Positions 7,174-63,621 of a DNA stretch of 64,000 nucleotides are shown one piece after another; position 1 is the stretch's first letter, and every line of letters begins with the position of its first letter. Origin of the DNA: Candidatus Latescibacterota bacterium (lineage in GTDB: Bacteria > Latescibacterota > UBA2968); the NCBI GenBank assembly GCA_965198115.1, contig OZ240241.1:704001-768000 (forward strand). The letters are read 5' to 3'. A program made the position numbers and the translations under genes. The notes beneath the pieces are model-generated. The model saw only the letters and a list, made by a program, of their open reading frames with translations, was not told the origin of the DNA and ran no database searches.

Positions 7174-8781
7174 ATGGCTGATTCAGGGGCCGTGCGATTG
7201 ATCGATTCGCTCGTGGCGGAGGGCGTTCGGACGCTGTTCTCGTTATCGGGCAACCAGATTATGTCCGTCTACGACGCGACGATTGGACGGGACATCGAGC
7301 TGATCCATACGCGTCACGAGGCGGCGGCTGTCCATATGGCCGATGCTGCCGGACGGCTGACCGGGGAGCCCGGTGTGGCGCTTCTGCCGGCAGGGCCAGG
7401 GCACTGCAACGCGATTTCCGCACTCTACGTGGCTCTGATGGCGGAGTCACCGGTCGTTGTGATCAGCGGCCACGCGCCGCTGGGCCAGGCCGGAATGGGC
7501 GCCTTTCAGGATATCGACCAGGTGACGACTTCGAAACCTGTGACGAAGGCGACCTGGCTGATCGAGGACGCGAATCGTATCGGATCCGATATCCGCGAAG
7601 CGCTCGAAATCGCCAGATCGGGGCGACCGGGGTCGGTTCACCTGAGCGTCCCGGAGGATGTCCTGAAGGCAAGTGCGGATCTGAAATCGGAGAACGGAGA
7701 ACGGAGAACGGAGAACGAAAGGCCTGGTGGCGTTGACGCGTCTTTCCTCGGTGAAGTACTCCGTCTGTTGAATGAAGCGGAGCGGCCAGTGATTTTGGCG
7801 GGACCGGGAATGGCGAGGGGATCCCGGTGGGACGCGATCGCGGCACTCTCCGATGCGACGGGAGTCCCTGCGCTTCCGATGATGAGTCCGCGTGGGGTCA
7901 ACGACCCGTGGCTGCACGAAGCGGCAAACTGCCTCGCGGGGGCCGATCTGGTTTTGCTCGTGGGGAAGAAGCTCGATTTCTCGCTCCGCTTTGGGGCGTC
8001 GCCCCCGTTCACGGAGGGATGTCGCTTCATCCAAATCGAGTCGGATGCGGAGCAATTGAAGGACGGTCCGCGTGTGGTTTTGAGATGTCACGCGGATCCG
8101 AGTGAAGTGGCTCGGGCGCTTGCCGCTGAAGCTGGCGACGGGGGATCGCACGCCGCGTGGCGCGACGAGGTCGAGGCCGCTCGAGATAAGGTTCCCGTAG
8201 AGTGGTCGTCGATGCGACGGCTGGACCGCAGGCCCATTCATCCCCTACGCATCTGTCAGGCCATTCAGCCCTATCTGGACAAGGGTGCGATGTTCGTGAG
8301 CGACGGCGGAGAATTCGGTCAGTGGGTGCAGGCCGGCCTCGATGCCGAGACGCGACTGATCAATGGACCCGCGGGGGCGATCGGGAGCGCGATTCCGTTG
8401 GCGATCGGAGCCAAACAGATTGACCGGTCACGCGGCGTATTCGCATTCGTCGGCGACGGTACGTTCGGTTACCACGCGATGGAGCTGGACACGGCCGTGC
8501 GCTACGATCTGCCGATCGTCGTTATCATCGGCAACGACGCGAGATGGAATGCGGAGCATCAGATTCAACTGAATACGTATGGCGCGGATCGCACCGTCGG
8601 GTGCGACCTGCTGCTCTCCCGTTACGACCGGGTCATCCAGGCGCTCGGTGGCTACGGGGCTTTCGTCCAGGATGCACAAGAACTGGGTGGCGCCGTGGCT
8701 CAGGCGGTATCGTCCGGGTTGCCTGCGTGCGTGAACGTCGCGATCGAGAGCGCCGCGGCACCTACGCTACTCAAACATTGA
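7174..8781 (+). CDS. Thiamine pyrophosphate-binding protein (acetolactate synthase-like)
   Basis: TRHEAAAVHMADA, GPGHCN and the ThDP motif GDGTFGY...IIGND. Confidence 0.92.
   Translation: MADSGAVRLIDSLVAEGVRTLFSLSGNQIMSVYDATIGRDIELIHTRHEAAAVHMADAAGRLTGEPGVALLPAGPGHCNAISALYVALMAESPVVVISGHAPLGQAGMGAFQDIDQVTTSKPVTKATWLIEDANRIGSDIREALEIARSGRPGSVHLSVPEDVLKASADLKSENGERRTENERPGGVDASFLGEVLRLLNEAERPVILAGPGMARGSRWDAIAALSDATGVPALPMMSPRGVNDPWLHEAANCLAGADLVLLVGKKLDFSLRFGASPPFTEGCRFIQIESDAEQLKDGPRVVLRCHADPSEVARALAAEAGDGGSHAAWRDEVEAARDKVPVEWSSMRRLDRRPIHPLRICQAIQPYLDKGAMFVSDGGEFGQWVQAGLDAETRLINGPAGAIGSAIPLAIGAKQIDRSRGVFAFVGDGTFGYHAMELDTAVRYDLPIVVIIGNDARWNAEHQIQLNTYGADRTVGCDLLLSRYDRVIQALGGYGAFVQDAQELGGAVAQAVSSGLPACVNVAIESAAAPTLLKH
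7688..7715 (+). repeat. Heptamer tandem repeat (CGGAGAA)x4 inside the ThDP enzyme gene
   Basis: Read directly; encodes SENGERRTEN in an inter-domain linker. Confidence 0.9.
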
Positions 8782-53981: not shown

Positions 53982-56019
53982 ATGGCTTCAGACCAACCTC
54001 AGAAGAACGCTTCCAGCTTGACCGTTTCGCCGATGCTCCAGAAGCGGATGATGGCGACGCTGTTCGCTTCGCAGAGCTTGTTCAGCGCATCCACCATTAT
54101 GGGCTTTACGCTGATGCCCATCATCTCCGCTCGACTCGGTGGCCGTGATAGCGCGGCCGGTGTAGCACCGACCGTCGTCATGTTGGGCAGGGCGCTATCC
54201 GCCTACCCGGCGGGTTGGATGATGGATCGATTGGGTCGGCGGCCGGGTCTTTCGCTCGGCTACGTGCTGTCGTGTCTGGGGGCTGTTCTCAGCGTGGTCT
54301 CCATCAGCTGGGAATCGTTCCTCGGGTTTACTGTGGGCGGTCTGCTCGTGGGTATGGACGTGGTGTCATCGAGCAGGCTCGGTTCGTCGCCGCGGAAATC
54401 CACGCGGCCCAGGATCAGGCACGTGCGATTGGCCTGGTGGTGCTGGCCGGGACCGTAGGCGCGGTCGGGGGACCCCTCCTCGTGGAGCCTTCAGGCATCG
54501 TTTCGAGAACGATCGATCTGCCTCCCCAGGCCGGGCCCTACCTGCTTGCCACCCTGTTGTGACGCCTTGCGATAATTCTCCGCCCGGCTTAAGCTATTCG
54601 CAGAATAGGCAGAATCGTTTCAATACGGTTAACAGTGGAGACCGTTCCCTAATGAGTTGAGGGTCACCTAAGATCTGGCGGCCATGCGACATAGTGCCAT
54701 AGGAGTACTTACAAGGCGCAACGGCCAAAAGCGGTTGTCGGACCTACGCCTGATGTCCCTTTCTTTACGCGAACGCGTTTGGCACATTCCGGGGGATCGG
54801 GACGCGAAACGCTCTCGACCTCCGACGGGTCCGCCATCGGCAGCACCGCCAGGGAGACGGCCGATTTTCTACCCCGCTTCGCCATTTTCGGGAAGCAGCT
54901 TCAAAACCACCTTGTCGACAGACGCAAGCTCTTGTTTTTGCACTGGTTTAAGTGTTTCCGACACCTGAAAAGCCCCCCCTTCGTCAACAACGGCCGCGAT
55001 GCGCCCTCCGGAACTAAAATTAGGACGGATTAGCAAAAGAAACCGGTCTCAACCGGTCTCCGGTCGGACGGCCACAGGTTTCCACCCCCCTATGCCCGCT
55101 GGCCTGGCCACGTCTTGAGCCTAATCGGTCGAAACGCGCTATTTTCTCGGTTCGAGAGCCTATTTCTCGGGCGTGTGGGAAAATGAAAAGGGCGGTCTAC
55201 ATCGGAACGCCCAGAGAGTTCATCCCCCCTTATCTCCGGTCGTCAGTTCTTGGTGCGTGAGAATGCGAATAGCGTAATCTGGGAGGGAATCTATCGTAAG
55301 CCGTAACAGCCCTGTTCACGGCCATCGCTCTGATTCTGACTCAACTGCTGCTGAGACCGGACCCTGTCCAAATTGGCAGGCTGGTCTCGGGTGGAACATC
55401 CCTTGCCCGGGAACGGGTCGTGGGGCGCAAGTTGAGGGAGATCTTTTCTGACGGAAACGCCCGATTCGGCGTCGCGGCGATGGTCATCGGGCAGTTCGTG
55501 ATGACGCTGATTATGGTCATCACGCCGTTGCATATGAATCACCACCATCACGGAACCGCTTCCATCTCGGGCGTCATTATGGCGCACACCCTCGGTATGT
55601 ATGGTTTGTCGAGTCTGACTGGCCGTCTCACGCCGAGGTTGGGACCCACGCGTGTTGTCTGGATCGGAGCGGCCATCCTCGCCGTTTCGGCTGTGATGAC
55701 TCCGGTTTCGAACAGCCTGCCCCTATTGGCGGTTGCCCTTTTCCTGCTCGGTTTGGGGTGGAACTTCTGCTTTATCGCGGGCACCGCGATTTTGTCGAAT
55801 GTCCTGGCTGTGGACGAACGTGGCCGGGCACAAGGAGCGAGTGAGGCTGTGATCGCAGTCGCCGCAGGCGGAGGCAGTCTCGGTACGGGCGTCGTCTTTG
55901 CCGGCGGGGGGATCCTGGCCGTCAGCGCGCTCGGTCTGGTGGTCTCCGGGGCGCTGCTCTGCGGAACGAGCTGGTGGTCCAAGCGGTCTGTTGCGGTTCC
56001 TGTGTCTGGGGATGATTGA
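53982..56019 (+). pseudogene. MFS transporter interrupted by a 751-bp element (also frameshift near 54357)
   Basis: GWMMDRLGRR, AHTLGMY, LGLGWNF. Removing 54558-55315 restores ...LLATL-FTAIAL... in frame with the 55420 ORF. Confidence 0.85.
54558..55308. mobile_element. Non-autonomous TGT...ACA mini-transposon/MITE without transposase
   Basis: 45-bp imperfect TIRs (34/45 identical): TGTGACGCCTTGCGATA...TTAAGCTATTCGCA vs reverse-complemented TGTTACGGCTTACGATA...TTACGCTATTCGCA; flanks aCCCTGT / gCCCTGT. Confidence 0.85.
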
Positions 56020-56922: not shown

Positions 56923-58701
56923 CTATTTGATGTAAATATCGGCAGCCGCATCGACACAGGCCTCGAGCGTCCCCTCGTTGAAGGTAGGATGCGGTCCCTC
57001 TTTTTTGGCTCTATCCGGGTTTCTCAACGGTGAAACTATAGAATGACAAGGTCATAGATCGTTCCCTACGCTTGGTTGTGTGTGTAGGACAATCAAAGCG
57101 AAGGGGGTGCGACCTATGACCGGGAGCAGATTACTATCGAAACTGCTGAGATTCAAGGGGTTCCGTGTTGTCAGCTGGTGGTTTGAGGGGAGAAGCTGCT
57201 TCGTCATCGCCGTAAAGCCACATAAGAATGGTTTGTTGTTGTCCGGAGTGCGGCCGTCGAGGTAAAATCGTCCGCACAATGCCCCATCCGCGTCGGTGGC
57301 GTGACATTCCGGTGTGCGGGTGGAGGGTCTGGCTTCTCTACCATCCTCGGGAGATTCGGTGTCCTACCCACGGTCGTGTGGTCGAGGAGATTCCGTGGGC
57401 GGAGCGGTTCTCTCGGGTGACGTATCGCTTCGAGTATGCCATGCTGCGCTACTGCCAGACCATGACGCAGAAGGCGGCGTCCGAGTTGCTGCGCATCTCT
57501 GCCTCGACGCTGTCGGATCTCCTTCACCGATCCATCACGCGGCTTCGTGAAGGTCATCGTATCCGAGGGCTCAAAACCATCGGGATCGACGAGATCTCCT
57601 ACGCCAAGCGTCACAGGTACGCCACGCTCGTTTACGATCTGGACCGCTCCTGCGTGGTGTGGGTTGGCCGCGGCAGGGCGCGTAAAACGATCGATCGGTT
57701 CTTCACAGAGGCTCTCAGTCCCTACCAGAGATCCAAGATCGAGTGGGCCTGCTGCGACATGAGCGAAGCTTACATCGGAGCCATCCAGGAACACTGTCCG
57801 AATGCCAAGCTGGTCCTCGATCGCTTTCACATCGTCAAGGCTCTCAATGCCGCCGTTGACGAGGTCCGTAAGGACCAGTGGCGTAAAGCTGCCCCGGATG
57901 AGCGCAAAGCCATGAAGGGCCTCCGATGGCTCCTCTACCGGCACTCAGCGACACGCTCCAGAGGGGATACTCGGACACTCAAAGCACTGGAGGAGGCGAA
58001 CTACCGAATCTATAGAGCCTGGAGACTCAAGGACGAGTTCGAGCAGTTCTGGGAATACAAAGCGCCCTGGGCTGCCGAACGCTTCCTGAAATGCTGGACG
58101 ACGTCCGCACTCAGAAGTCGACTTGAACCCCTGCGAAAGTTCGTCAGGACCCTGCGACAGCACTTCTTCGGCGTCCTCGCATTCGTGAACACGCGTCTTA
58201 CCAACGCCATCGCCGAAGGCCTCAACCGAATCGTCCAAATCGTCAAGAACCGAGCCAGCGGATTCCGCACACTCGACGCATTCAACGATATGATCTTCCT
58301 TACCGTCGGAGACATAAACATCCCTGAGCAGATTCCGAAGAGGTTCCGCACACTCTAACCGCGCCCCCATGCCAGGAACCACGGCACCTTCACCCACTTC
58401 AGCTCGTTGAGAGATCCGGATATAGCCTTTTTCTTCTGGAGTCGAACTTGTAAATCAGCAGCTTCCACTTGTTGGGACCCAGATACTCCAGGCGTGCCAG
58501 GCGTCCGACGCCCTTGACGTTTCCCATTCCAAAGACGCGACCCACGAGGCCGCTCTTCGCCTCCTTCACAATCTCGACGAACAGCATATTCGCTTTGAAG
58601 TGACCACGAAATCCGCTGATCCCACGACGTCGATACTTTTTTGCGTGATTCTTGAGCGCTGAAATCGCCGTCTGTTGCGCGCCTGGCGATGGCATTTGCA
58701 T
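56923..58701 (-). pseudogene. Small hypothetical protein interrupted by ISL3 copy 2
   Basis: ...ARLEYLGPNKWKLLIYKFDSRRK on one side, KEGPHPTFNEGTLEACVDAAADIYIK* on the other; insertion in an A-run. Confidence 0.6.
57007..58427 (+). mobile_element. ISL3-family insertion sequence, copy 2 (transposase 57080..58358, 1-bp insertion near 57232)
   Basis: Same IRs and near-identical sequence to 2296..3715, in inverted orientation. Confidence 0.95.
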
Positions 58702-58787: not shown

Positions 58788-61700
58788 TCAGAATTGCGCG
58801 GCAAATATCAGGAAATCGCTGAAACCAACCGTGTCATCGCCATCGAGGTCGGCCTCCACCAAGTAAAACTCCTGCCCCGCGGAGGAGCCGAAAGCTCCGG
58901 CGAGCAGGAGGAAGTCGGGAAAGCCTACGGTCCCATCTCCGTCGATGTCGGCCGATGGCTCCGATCCCGCGATCCCGGTGGTAGCCAGGGATACGATCAA
59001 CGGTGGGGAAGCGTCGGCAGTGAAGATTGTGAATGTCCCGGTGACGGGGCCTTCCTCCTGGGAACCGAACACGAGGTCGAAGTTCAAAGAGACTCCCGGT
59101 TCGACGATGCCCAGGAGTGGACTCACGGTGAACGGTCCTTCGACCCGAACGCTGTCAACAGTCAGATCGCCCGTGCCGTCGTTCTGCAAGGCGATGGCCA
59201 GGGTTGCGCTCGTCCCCACCGCGACATCACCCCAATCCAGGGATTGTGTGGCCAAGACCGGGAGCGGTTCGAGTTGGACCGGCGCGGGTGCAGTGCCGGA
59301 CAAGTCGATGGTGATCGTCGGCGATTCAGATCGTTCGAGCCAATCGTGAGTGACCCTAGCGTGGTCCCTTCGGCGGTGGGCGAAAACGTGACCGTCAGGG
59401 TCGACGTTGCGCCTGCTGGGATGTCGAGGGTGTTCGGGCTGACTGTGTAAGGACCCGAGTCGATCGTAGCCTGGCTGATGGTGAGGGACTCGCTGCCGTT
59501 GTTTTCGATCGACAGGGTCAGGGAAGATGAGGCGCCGATTTCGGTCAGGCTGAAACTCAGCGACTCGATCGATAGAGCGATTCTGGGCTGACTGGGCAGA
59601 ATCGACACGGGACCAAAGCTGTCGACAAAAGACAGGCCGCCTGACTGATCCGCGAAAATTAAAATGTCATAGTCTCCGGTCCCGAGGGTGCCGGTTGGCG
59701 CAGTGACCGTGAATTGCCCATCCGTTACGTCTGCAATCTGAGAGGCCAGCGGTGTTCCATCAGAACTGTTGAATTGCAGGGCCATCTGACTAACTGAACC
59801 CTCGGTGAAGGTGCCAGAAATCGTCCGTGTTTGACCCAAGAAAAAGTCAGCGGTCAGAGGGGCATCGAGAAGAACTCCACAGAAGATATCCACGGGAAGC
59901 CGGAAGGGCTCGGTTCCATTAGGCTGGATGGTGATAGGTGCGAACGTTCCGCGAAGAGGAAGACCACTGGTTGTGCCTCCAAACACGTTTAGCGTGTAGG
60001 AGCCGGATTGCGATGGGAAGTAAACGAGCCCCTTCCGGAAGGCGCTATCCACGACGTTGAATTGGAACAGGATCTGCGTTCCGCTCTCATCCGTTAGGAC
60101 AACTTGTATGATTTCGATGGATGGATCCGCTACCGTGCCAGAGAAAGTGACTCCCTGCCCAGCCACTATCGCAGTGGGGAATCCGACGTCGAGGGTAAGA
60201 CCATCAAAGAAGTCTGTGGGGAGTGAGAAGGCACCTTCGCCCTCAGTGACAGAGAAGACTGGGAAACTCCCCACGAAGGGCAGAAGCTCCCCTGAAACGC
60301 CCATATAAACACTTAGCACGTACGACCCAATCTGATCAGGCCCAAATAGGATTGAACTTTCGAACTGACCAGATTCTACATCTTCAGTGAAACTAATTGT
60401 ATCGCCTGTAACATCGACAAATTGAAACAGGACCCGGGAAACGTTGTGATCACCTATGACTCCAGAGAGGCGCAGAGGCTGGCCCGAAGACACCGAAGTT
60501 AGGATTTCAGCCTCAAGCAAGATGCCCGGAAAGAAGTCAGGTGGTAAGTCGAGCGCCCCTTCGCCCTGTTCGACAGACACACGGGGAAGCTTGCCCACGA
60601 AAGGAAGGGACTCTCCCTTTAGGGCCCGCAAAGATGTTAAGCTCGTACGTCCCGGAATCGTCGTGGGATGTGAGCAGGATCGCCCTAAAACGCCCATTTT
60701 CGACTGATGATCTGAAGAGTAGTGTGTCCGCACCACTGCTAATCGGATCGAATCGAAACTGGATCTCCGTGTCGTTTGGGTTCGCCAACGTTCCTTCAAC
60801 TACCATCGCCTGGCCAGTGGTCATATCGCCGGAGAGCGGCGCATCGAGTGTGAGCTGAGGGAGATAGTCCGTTGGCAAGACGTTGCTCACCTGGAAGCTT
60901 CGCCCGACGGGAATGGTCACTGCGACAAGATCGGCCTCCAAATCCCCCGTGATCGTGATGTCGTGTGTGCCTCCGTCGGCCGTTAACCGGAAGTAGGCGG
61001 CGGCAGCCGGACGGACCTGATCCGACACGGCGGTCGAGGGCAGGCGATCTGGTGTTCCGCGACGGGTGGCATCACCCGTTCTCCCGTGGTGGGGTCGGTT
61101 AGATGCCGACTCCCGTAGTTCAGGGTAGGGTCGCTGTTGAGGCCGGCTGCTGAGATGAAGTTACGTGTGACGAAAGATTCCAGGAGTTCGTCGAACGTGG
61201 CGCCGGTGGCACTTTCGATGTTCTCGATGCCCGTTCTGTGGGTCTTGACGAGGGCGCCCGGGATCTCATCTCCGTAGAGGTCGATCATCGTCTGGAGTCC
61301 TAGGTAGGCTGCCCCGCGAATGCCCGAACTCGCGAGCGCGTCTCCGTTCAGGCGAAAGGTCTCTGGGGCGGAGAGGAAGCTTTCCAAGCGACTCGGGTTC
61401 CCGCTCTCGACGTGTCCTCCGACCAGGTCCTCGGTAAAATGAGACAGGGCTTCGTTGAGCCAGGATTCCTCTGCGTCGCTGCCACCAAAGATGAAAAAGT
61501 GTTGGTTGAAGTTTACAAGATGCTGGTACTCGTGCGCGAGTAATGCATCATAGGAATTAGGGTCTTCACTTGGGCTAAGTGCATGATTTCATAAATATTA
61601 TTACGTATGTCCTGAACATTATTTGTAGCTTATGTTCTCCTTCAAAAGGAGGAGAACAATGCCAAGACGTTCGCCTTATGTGGTGCTACTGTCTGAGAAG

Positions 61701-63621
61701 GAACGGGTCGACCTCGAGCGAATGGCTGGACAATATACGTTACCGTATTATCAAGTGATCCGATCGAAAATCGTGCTTCTCGCCGCCGAGGGATTATCCA
61801 ACAAGATTATCGCCCAACGGTTGGATGTCCCGCGTCCGATCGTAAGCAAATGGCGTAAGCGCTTTTTCGAAGAGCGTCTTTCGGGACTCGAAGATAGATC
61901 TCGTCCCGGGCGCCCGCCCGGTTTTCCCCCCTCAGGTGGTCGTTCAGATCAAGGCGCTGGCGTGTGAACTACCGAGCGAGAGCGGGATACCGCTCTCGCG
62001 GTCCAGCTGTTCCGAGATTGCCGCCGAGGCAGTGCAAAGGGGCTTCGTTGCCAAGATCAGCGGCGCCACTGTCTGGCGCTGGTTGAACGAGGACGCGATT
62101 CGTCCTTGGTATCATCGCTCCTGGATTTTCCCACGGGACCCGGACTTCCAAACCAAAGCAGGTAGAGTCCTTGATCTGTATCACCGCCAATGGCAAGGAA
62201 AGCCTTTAGGGCCGAGGGAATATGTACTTTCTGCCGACGAAAAGACCAGTATTCAAGCACGAGCTCGCAAGCACGTTACCCTACCGCCAGCCTCGAACAG
62301 AGCGGCACGCGTTGAAACACGAATACGAGCGGAAAGGAGCCCTGGCCTATCTGGCTGCTCTCGACGTGCACAATGGTCGAATCTTCGGTCTCTGTGAGTC
62401 TTCTTCGGGTATCGAGCCCTTCAACCGGCTCCTGAGCCTGATCATGAGCCGGAAACCCTATTGCTCGGCAAAGAAAGTCTACCTCATCGTGGATAATGGC
62501 TCCTCGCACCGAGGGCAAACATGCATCGACCGTATCCAGGGGAAGTGGCCAAACATCCACCCCGTTCACCTTCCGATCCACGCAAGCTGGCTCAATCAGA
62601 TCGAGATCTACTTCTCGATCCTCAAACGCAAGGCTCTGACACCTATCGAATTTGCATCGCTCGAAGAGCTTGAGGCAAGAATCCTCGGTTTTCAGGAACG
62701 CTACGGACGTATCGCCACACCCTTCAAATGGAAGTTCACACGAACAGATCTCGCGGAGATGATCGACAAACTCAGGTTCTACGATACGCCCTTGGCAAAG
62801 TCTGCTTAGAATACGTCACCGTATTTGCGAACAGGAGTACTAAGGTAGATTAGGTCCGCCAGGTTTCCATCTCCACCAATGCTTGCCGTTAGAACTGAAC
62901 CTGATCGGAAGAAGCCACCAAAAGGCCCTGTCTCGTCGACCACCGGCGTAAAGAGGAAAAGTAGCTTCCCGTCACCGTCGACGTCGGAAGGGCCGCCAAA
63001 CGTGTCGTCGACGATGGACTTTGAGGAGTTGCTGAACCGATCGATGATGTCTTGGATGTCCTGTTCTGTCACGCTTTGAGCAGAGTCGGAAGGCGTGTTG
63101 TCGAGGTAGGCGAGTGCGTCGTCGTTTACTGCGACGAGCGTGGCCGTAATCGAACGGTCGGATGTGACGTCGAGGAGCTCGGTGAAGATGAAGCTCCGCG
63201 ACGAGCCGATGGCCGGAATAGTCTGTTTGCGGACGGGGCGTGCATATCGATCCGCGATCGGTATAGTGGCGGCGAACGCCCTCTCTTCCGCTCGGAGCAA
63301 GCGGGCGAGCCGGTCGTGGGGTGTAAGCGGCGCTTCGACGCCTCTTGCCCGAAGGGGGATGACCTTGCTGGATGCCGTGCCGAGGATTTCGTAGTCGTAA
63401 GATCGAGACGTGTCTGCCTCTTCGAAGTTGCGGGCGTAGAGGATGAGCTCATAGTCTGCGCCCGAAAAGTCCAGCGACAACGTAGCCTGGCCTCCGTTGA
63501 GGGGCGTGGTCGACACGTCGCCGATCGTCTGGGCGACCGACGGGCCGGACAGGCTAGCGAACAGGAGTGTGATGAAGAAGAACGGGTGTATTGAGCACTC
63601 CCAAAGGTGTGAATCGAACAT
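58788..63621 (-). pseudogene. Large secreted protein: gluzincin metallopeptidase, 4 Ig-like repeats, 2 ASH/choice-of-anchor-D-like domains, dockerin-like C-terminus; interrupted by IS630 and frameshifted
   Basis: Signal-like FFFITLLFASLSGPSVA; SDVDGDGK; LAHEYQHLVN and WLNEALSH; IENNGSESL and LQNDGTGDL; ADIDGDGTVGFPDFL / ADLDGDDTVGFSDFL. Start codon uncertain. Confidence 0.8.
61579..62840 (+). mobile_element. IS630-family insertion sequence, copy 2 (transposase ~61659..62809, extra 1-bp insertion near 62315)
   Basis: Near-identical to 43023..44283; flanked by TAA/TAA in a CTAAG target. Confidence 0.93.

Follow-up and report, generated by a model that had tools for sequence, protein, structure and literature searches.

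Insertion sequences of the IS21 type make target duplications of 4-8 bp, and Tn7 and Tn402 make duplications of 5 bp and depend on tnsABC or tniABQ partners. The origin of a MITE is usually sought in an IS or a Tn3-type transposon, and mini-Mu elements are known chiefly as laboratory constructs. Bacterial MITEs measure 50-500 bp in the part of PMC13367494 available to us. Among transposable phages, Mu duplicates 5 bp and B3 6 bp, and the transposable prophages of Leptospira have TG-CA and TA-TA ends and lengths of 35-40 kb, according to excerpts of PMC8705779. For the IS1202 family, the available sections of PMC10132070 give duplications of 3-5, 16-28 or 0 bp.

Within the window, the 64,000-nucleotide stretch of DNA analysed here, a 751-bp insert with TGT...ACA ends splits a gene for an MFS transporter, and PF07690 matches both halves (Table 1). 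The 45-bp TIR arms are complementary at 34 of 45 positions, a level reached or exceeded by none of 200,000 random 751-bp segments of the genome, and each arm contains two sub-repeats spaced by 22 bp. The clean insertion with imperfect TIRs and the two related sub-repeats per end, about 22 bp apart, which the original prediction had described from the sequence alone, are thus confirmed. The target duplication had been read as CCCTGT plus one extra G. It is instead 7 bp with one mismatch: excision of the element together with 7 bp restores a 348-aa frame that runs to the stop of the MFS gene, whereas excision with 5, 6 or 8 bp does not, so the duplication at this site is 7 bp. The MFS gene carries a separate frameshift. 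Sequencing run X1, possibly of the source sample, yielded one contig that agrees with 54300-54586 at every base and a second that matches 55254-55600, so in this data set neither the frameshift nor the mismatched G is an assembly error. The window also holds genes at 57080-58358 and 61632-62397 that, from their translations, we take to be ISL3-like and IS630-like.

Table 1. Features of the inserted element and the interrupted gene (positions within the window).
Feature	Position	Strand	Remark
MFS transporter gene, 5' part	53982..54557	+	frameshifted near 54360
Left copy of 7-bp target duplication	54551..54557	+	ACCCTGT
Element, non-autonomous	54558..55308	+	one of 18 two-ended copies
Left TIR	54558..54602	+	TGT and two predicted transposase sites (54566-54578, 54588-54600), 22-bp period
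Central module	54867..55092	.	most variable part of the element
AACCGGTCTC tandem	55041..55060	+	private to the window copy (1/17)
Possible third transposase site, inverted	55133..55145	+	weak (score reached by 6% of 150 shuffles); overlaps CTATT repeat
Right TIR	55264..55308	-	TGT and two predicted sites (55300-55288, 55278-55266)
Right copy of 7-bp target duplication	55309..55315	+	GCCCTGT, one mismatch; G also in X1 contig
MFS transporter gene, 3' part	55316..56019	+	

The genome that contains the window (G000; 8.43 Mb, a single contig) was searched for further copies and their duplication lengths were tabulated, as the original prediction had proposed. Eighteen two-ended copies were found, 17 of them 751-823 bp long with identities of 89-100% and one of 3,598 bp. 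The 3,598-bp copy was ruled out as an autonomous parent, its extra DNA being two nested ISs that we take to be IS256-like. Three orphan ends and three internal fragments are also present, and a genome-wide scan with an end-motif profile gave 38 hits above 18 bits, all of them in family members. Run X1 covers the element at a depth of about 120-430 and its flanks at about 10.

Perfect 7-bp duplications flank 12 single copies and also form the outer duplication of one two-copy composite, or 13 of 17 insertion events when the composite is counted once. The window copy agrees at six of seven bases, and three copies have no duplication at all. The 13 duplications have no common target site; there is a loose preference for A/T at positions 3-5 and for G/C at positions 2 and 6. 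The element was removed in silico at 14 sites, with control lengths applied to the window copy only; at 10 of them the rejoined sequence had a frame of 274 aa or more open across the junction.

At G000:1426914-1427051 (L018), the insertion of one copy into another, at element position 132-138, has produced an inverted 138-bp left end. ISs have inserted into the element itself and into the flank of one copy, and the IS load of the genome is very heavy, with one IS256-like element in well over 100 copies and several others in 30-80. An unrelated repeat of ~88 bp, present in ~11 copies (G000:25578-25668 and ten other sites), adjoins both one of the orphan left ends and a fragment of the Mu-like transposase described below.

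At a fine scale the copies are mosaic: when sites are separated by more than 30 bp, roughly every second pair is rejected by the four-gamete test (incompatibility of ~0.5 at all such distances), and there is no single breakpoint. Gene conversion would be the simplest reading of this pattern, and polishing artefacts among repeats could possibly have produced it instead.

Outside this genome, the element used as a DNA query against 40 relatives and 167 genomes of the phylum gave just short hits with E about 1e-3 or weaker. There were no matches to the exact end pattern in metagenome and viral contigs, none to the pattern with 2 mismatches in the 167 phylum genomes, and nothing below E 0.2 in a distant-mode search of plasmid and phage collections with the element. 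Parts of the element occur in sequencing runs (22 rows from 10 studies), with diverged pieces in runs X4, X5 and X7.

At G000:1426120-1437467 (11.3 kb), two 100%-identical direct copies of the element, bounded by outer 7-bp TCTGTAG repeats, enclose a DUF3102 gene followed by an rve transposase gene, and one X1 contig spans this gene pair into an element end. The transposase (G000:1434299-1435711) is MuA-like, matching the PHROG 310 transposase at E 2.7e-27, and was the one MuA/TnsB-like transposase found among 37 rve matches in the genome. It keeps the invariant D154/D240/E276, and the fold of its structural model (pLDDT 71) is closest to TnsB, IstA and MuA, with IstA and TnsB ranking above MuA. 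Because of a frameshift it is 460 aa long, compared with ~538 aa in its relatives, and its C-terminus is truncated. No MuB-like gene lies beside it; one weak ATPase hit falls elsewhere in the genome, as do two short fragments of the 3' end of the transposase gene. Parts of the transposase have no cover in runs X3, X4 and X7, an observation of no evidential weight. This enzyme is a candidate for the trans-acting partner of the element, though chance capture could account for its place inside the composite. A replicative cointegrate and a composite transposon would each explain why the two direct copies are identical and share a single outer duplication. Three copies lacking a duplication and three orphan ends also bear on whether transposition is replicative; no reciprocal flank pairs were found.

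The composite also contains, on the minus strand at G000:1427408-1431201 (L020:3409-7202), an ORF of ~1,070 aa. It has RNA polymerase beta (PF00562, PF04565) and beta-prime (PF00623) domains in one chain and overlaps a gene for an ECF sigma factor. The ORF is predicted to encode a small single-chain polymerase-like protein, as cargo between the two element copies.

A profile search showed the transposase clade to be broad (164 representatives at E<=1e-30), and the better-covered relatives that we inspected lie in prophage-like contexts. The nearest hits in isolated phages were transposase A of Pseudomonas and Stenotrophomonas phages, which we take to be B3-like (24-26%), and one Microcystis phage protein (31%). 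The closest whole-genome relative (39% identity) is encoded in G105, a genome of the same class, within a Mu/B3-type prophage that has genes for a repressor, a DUF3102-like protein, a MuB-like ATPase, a terminase, a portal and a capsid. The prophage ends delimit ~40.8 kb, calculated from their mapped positions, close to the 35-40 kb given for Leptospira transposable prophages in excerpts of PMC8705779. The early-side end was first spotted by eye at a phage-host junction, and a pattern made from that end and the element then located two tail-side ends (G105:C2:9859 and 4131971; L148 and L149), whose boundary was set independently by the divergence of flanks between the two copies. The tail-side end starts with TA and the early end with TG. 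Several copies or rearrangements of the prophage break the assembly, and its flanks showed no pairing at any length. No intact prophage with both flanks was found, and the 7-bp stagger is that of the element copies.

The ends of the element and of the G105 prophage share CGATAAT-like sites at positions 13 and 35. In register, the left TIR matches the tail-side end at 25/41 positions and the early end at 20/41, and the right TIR matches the prophage ends at 26/41 and 25/41. We judged these similarities by empirical rank, as binomial p-values overstate their significance. In an ungapped scan of 194,096 G105 positions, the three best hits of the right TIR were the three prophage ends; for the left TIR, the best hit (27/41) was an internal coding site and the next two were the tail ends. 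The similarity stops at the TIRs, as the element's interior could not be aligned to the prophage.

A consensus end pattern scanned across 167 genomes hit seven, with one control hit. G105 was hit by construction of the pattern, and four genomes with single hits look like chance. G072, which had not been used in building the pattern, has six hits, all starting TGT, and encodes three homologous transposases. G004 has two related ends and no transposase homolog with the query used. No end motif was found in five of seven relatives with a transposase homolog. When the pattern was refitted to G072, it found 13 ends and no control hits. These 13 TGT ends (contigs C82, C106, C136, C148, C274, C277, C278, C389, C490, C566, C652 and C692; L166-L178) are mostly beside host genes. 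One 139-bp two-ended unit in this genome has no duplication, and a pair of ends 1,982 bp apart surrounds a host gene, with flanks that match at 5/7 positions in register. That match is the sole outside support for a 7-bp duplication. The end motif was not found in 23 more distant prophage-like records or loci, many of them fragments. A profile scan of whole and partial related phage records likewise found no ends, and hence no independent duplication length, and in five distant genomes a loose end pattern matched no more often than its reversed control.

The G004 ends belong to two ~154-bp copies with a TA end (G004:C1:364609 and 2568124; L159:1501-1690 and L162:1501-1654). This end, at which each copy begins, resembles the right TIR of the element at 26/41 positions and is followed by an AT-rich stretch and a hairpin. 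L159 also contains one degenerate CRISPR repeat of the kind that forms a long array beside cas-like genes in another genome (G014:C1:2227063-2238334). No cas or transposase gene was seen adjoining the G004 copies. By analogy, the Mu-type end beside a lone CRISPR repeat recalls CAST layouts.

Taken on its sequence features, the gene-less, multi-copy transposon with 7-bp duplications and ends matching those of a Mu/B3-type prophage is probably a natural 'mini-Mu' MITE mobilised in trans by a DDE transposase of phage lineage. The original prediction of a non-autonomous, trans-mobilised mini-element is supported by the 18 copies and the lack of a transposase of their own. Its proposal that reiterated end sites of Mu/Tn7/IS21 type are present holds as well, and can be narrowed to a Mu/B3-type phage transposase as partner; the autonomous partner that it suggested looking for has a MuA-like candidate inside the composite.

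The steps that we propose follow Mu biochemistry and PMC8705779. The transposase would bind the two 22-bp-spaced sites at each end, nick at the terminal CA and transfer the ends to the two strands of the target at a 7-bp offset, with a loose preference for sites that have an A/T-rich centre and G/C flanks. Replication through the strand-transfer product would yield cointegrates, which would fit the identical direct copies with one outer duplication. Copies without a duplication may also be replicative products, and a plain composite transposon would fit too. The parent prophage would since have been lost, save for the DUF3102-transposase pair and the two short fragments, and the copies would have swapped short tracts with each other.

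A broader reading is that an undescribed clade of transposable phages with a 7-bp stagger has repeatedly left phage-ended MITEs in the phylum (in G000, G072 and G004), and that in G000 the MITE recaptured a C-terminally shortened, MuB-independent phage transposase between two of its copies to become a nascent IS-like self-mobile unit. We put this forward tentatively, as possible with the balance of probability against it.

We consider it unlikely that this MITE had as its parent an ordinary IS, of the IS21, IS481 or IS1202 type and since lost, and owes its likeness to prophage ends to shared ancestry of TG...CA transposases. IS21 remnants in G000 and the ranking of IstA and TnsB above MuA in the fold search would agree with such a parent, as would the TGT...ACA ends and extra internal site that also define the IS1202 family in the available text of PMC10132070. 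Against it, the match to the prophage ends is in exact register and top-ranked for the right TIR, and the duplications listed for IS1202 in that text are of other lengths. The end motif is also confined to family members, and such ends as could be recovered for 15 rve/IstB seed loci are unlike the TIRs (single-copy seeds gave no ends); therefore this assembly holds no IS-like autonomous copy.

A similarly doubtful proposal, which is compatible with the mini-Mu MITE reading since both can hold, concerns the central module (~230 bp). This module might be a cis-acting DNA site for resolution, packaging or origin function, derived from a plasmid or phage satellite and aiding spread. The original idea of a regulatory/recombination module may still apply to it. 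More specific candidates, namely a cos site, a resolvase site and a MOBQ nic site, found no support in any search. Homologs of the module that share conserved short words occur away from the element copies, where mobile DNA has decayed (G000:8396846-8397030, 8403217-8403447 and 8400662-8400742), in run X5 the module has higher depth and several different flanks, and MITEs with resolution sites are known, according to the accessible part of PMC13367494. Set against these points, the module is the most variable part of the element, recombination among copies is spread throughout with no focal point, and the module had no match in phages, plasmids, viral contigs or the 167 genomes.

Two regions related to the module contain further ORFs. 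At G000:5976093-5982105 (L023:8094-14106), a small ORF, presumably HGGxSTG-type, is found 1 kb from an orphan right end that includes the central module, and an integrase gene that we take to be P4-like is nearby; this arrangement suggests a satellite-like island. At 8.396-8.400 Mb of G000 (L022:3984-4574 and 7851-8522), a repeated ORF fragment with no Pfam match adjoins the homologs of the central module.

Within the element, two ORFs (94 and 84 aa) had no Pfam match, and tblastx of the element found nothing outside family members, in line with the original view that the interior has no transposase remnant or convincing ORF. Both direct repeats noted there are present in the window copy. Their conservation differs: the AACCGGTCTC tandem occurs in 1/17 copies and is thus a private duplication of the window copy, and the CTATT pair is intact in 9/17. 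We set aside a hairpin close to the left end whose sequence, ATTGAAAC, resembles a CRISPR repeat: its 8-mer is common (132 in the genome), and a simple finder for CRISPR-like arrays returned none, only two tandem repeats.

The suggestion that the interior encodes an RNA was not borne out. Rfam at E<=5 gave four matches, all far below the gathering score, and single-strand folding showed no excess over shuffles on either strand (z +0.62 and +0.75). When 12 of the 17 copies were folded as an alignment, both partners had changed in 1/227 predicted pairs, and that pair falls where the alignment is poor; the covariation term was +0.6, from copies too similar for a strong covariation test. Neither ORF families nor Rfam, folding or covariation thus lend support to an encoded RNA, and the interior is probably passenger DNA and not an RNA gene. 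That the interior is kept as a functional non-coding RNA or regulatory cassette, with the element as its vehicle, is very improbable: the first 300 bp vary little between copies, and one 158-nt contig from a metatranscriptome run labelled as sponge metagenome lies on 54618-54792 (<90% likeness, and not evidence of transcription), but indels of 5-60 bp are spread throughout the interior, the promoter scan found no sigma-70-type promoter and one terminator-like site against 1.2 expected, and the 167 other phylum genomes have no homolog of the interior.

A literature search, weighted away from subscription journals, found neither a transposable phage with a 7-bp duplication nor a mini-Mu MITE of natural origin. 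An amplified MITE with phage ends, arising in nature, would mean that a lost prophage can keep mutating its host. It would also provide a natural test case for what determines the stagger of MuA/TnsB-type enzymes. Transposable prophages are sought with a 5/6-bp rule (PMC8705779), which a 7-bp duplication would widen, and searches tied to 5-6 bp would consequently miss this clade.

Several known families can be set aside by comparison. No decayed istA or istB, the finding that the original prediction had said would point to a simple deletion derivative, was present inside the element, and no ends are shared with the resident IS21, so we rejected an IS21 deletion derivative. A Tn7/Tn402-like mini-element was rejected on duplication length (7 bp against 5 bp). 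The IS1202 family resembles the element in its TGT...ACA ends, extra internal transposase site and TnsB-like fold; in contrast, the element has no transposase inside, its 13 duplications have no common target, and its 7 bp lies outside the IS1202 range given in the available part of PMC10132070, for which reason an IS1202 derivative was also rejected. TIME and TIME-COMP MITEs, as described in the accessible part of PMC13367494, are likewise non-autonomous and multi-copy with TIRs, and include composites of two direct copies, but the element is longer than their 50-500 bp, and its ends appear to trace to a transposable phage and not to Tn3 or an IS.

The element is most like engineered mini-Mu and mini-D3112 and the Mu/B3 prophages, with which it shares TG...CA ends and reiterated transposase sites. 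As in the mini-phages, it encodes no transposase and its targets are near-random; as in Mu/B3-type prophages, its candidate partner gene is of the MuA-type DDE class and is preceded by DUF3102. A TA end, such as the G105 prophage has on one side, also occurs in some Leptospira prophages in the excerpts of PMC8705779. Unlike mini-Mu, the element is natural, ~0.8 kb long and amplified to 18 copies. Unlike Mu and B3, it has near-symmetric 45-bp TIRs, and the MuB-type ATPase gene that is present in the G105 prophage is not beside the G000 transposase. Because its 7-bp duplication differs from the 5 bp of Mu and the 6 bp of B3, and its size is beyond that usual for MITEs, we conclude that the element is best described as a variant of mini-Mu and MITEs and not as a plain member of either.
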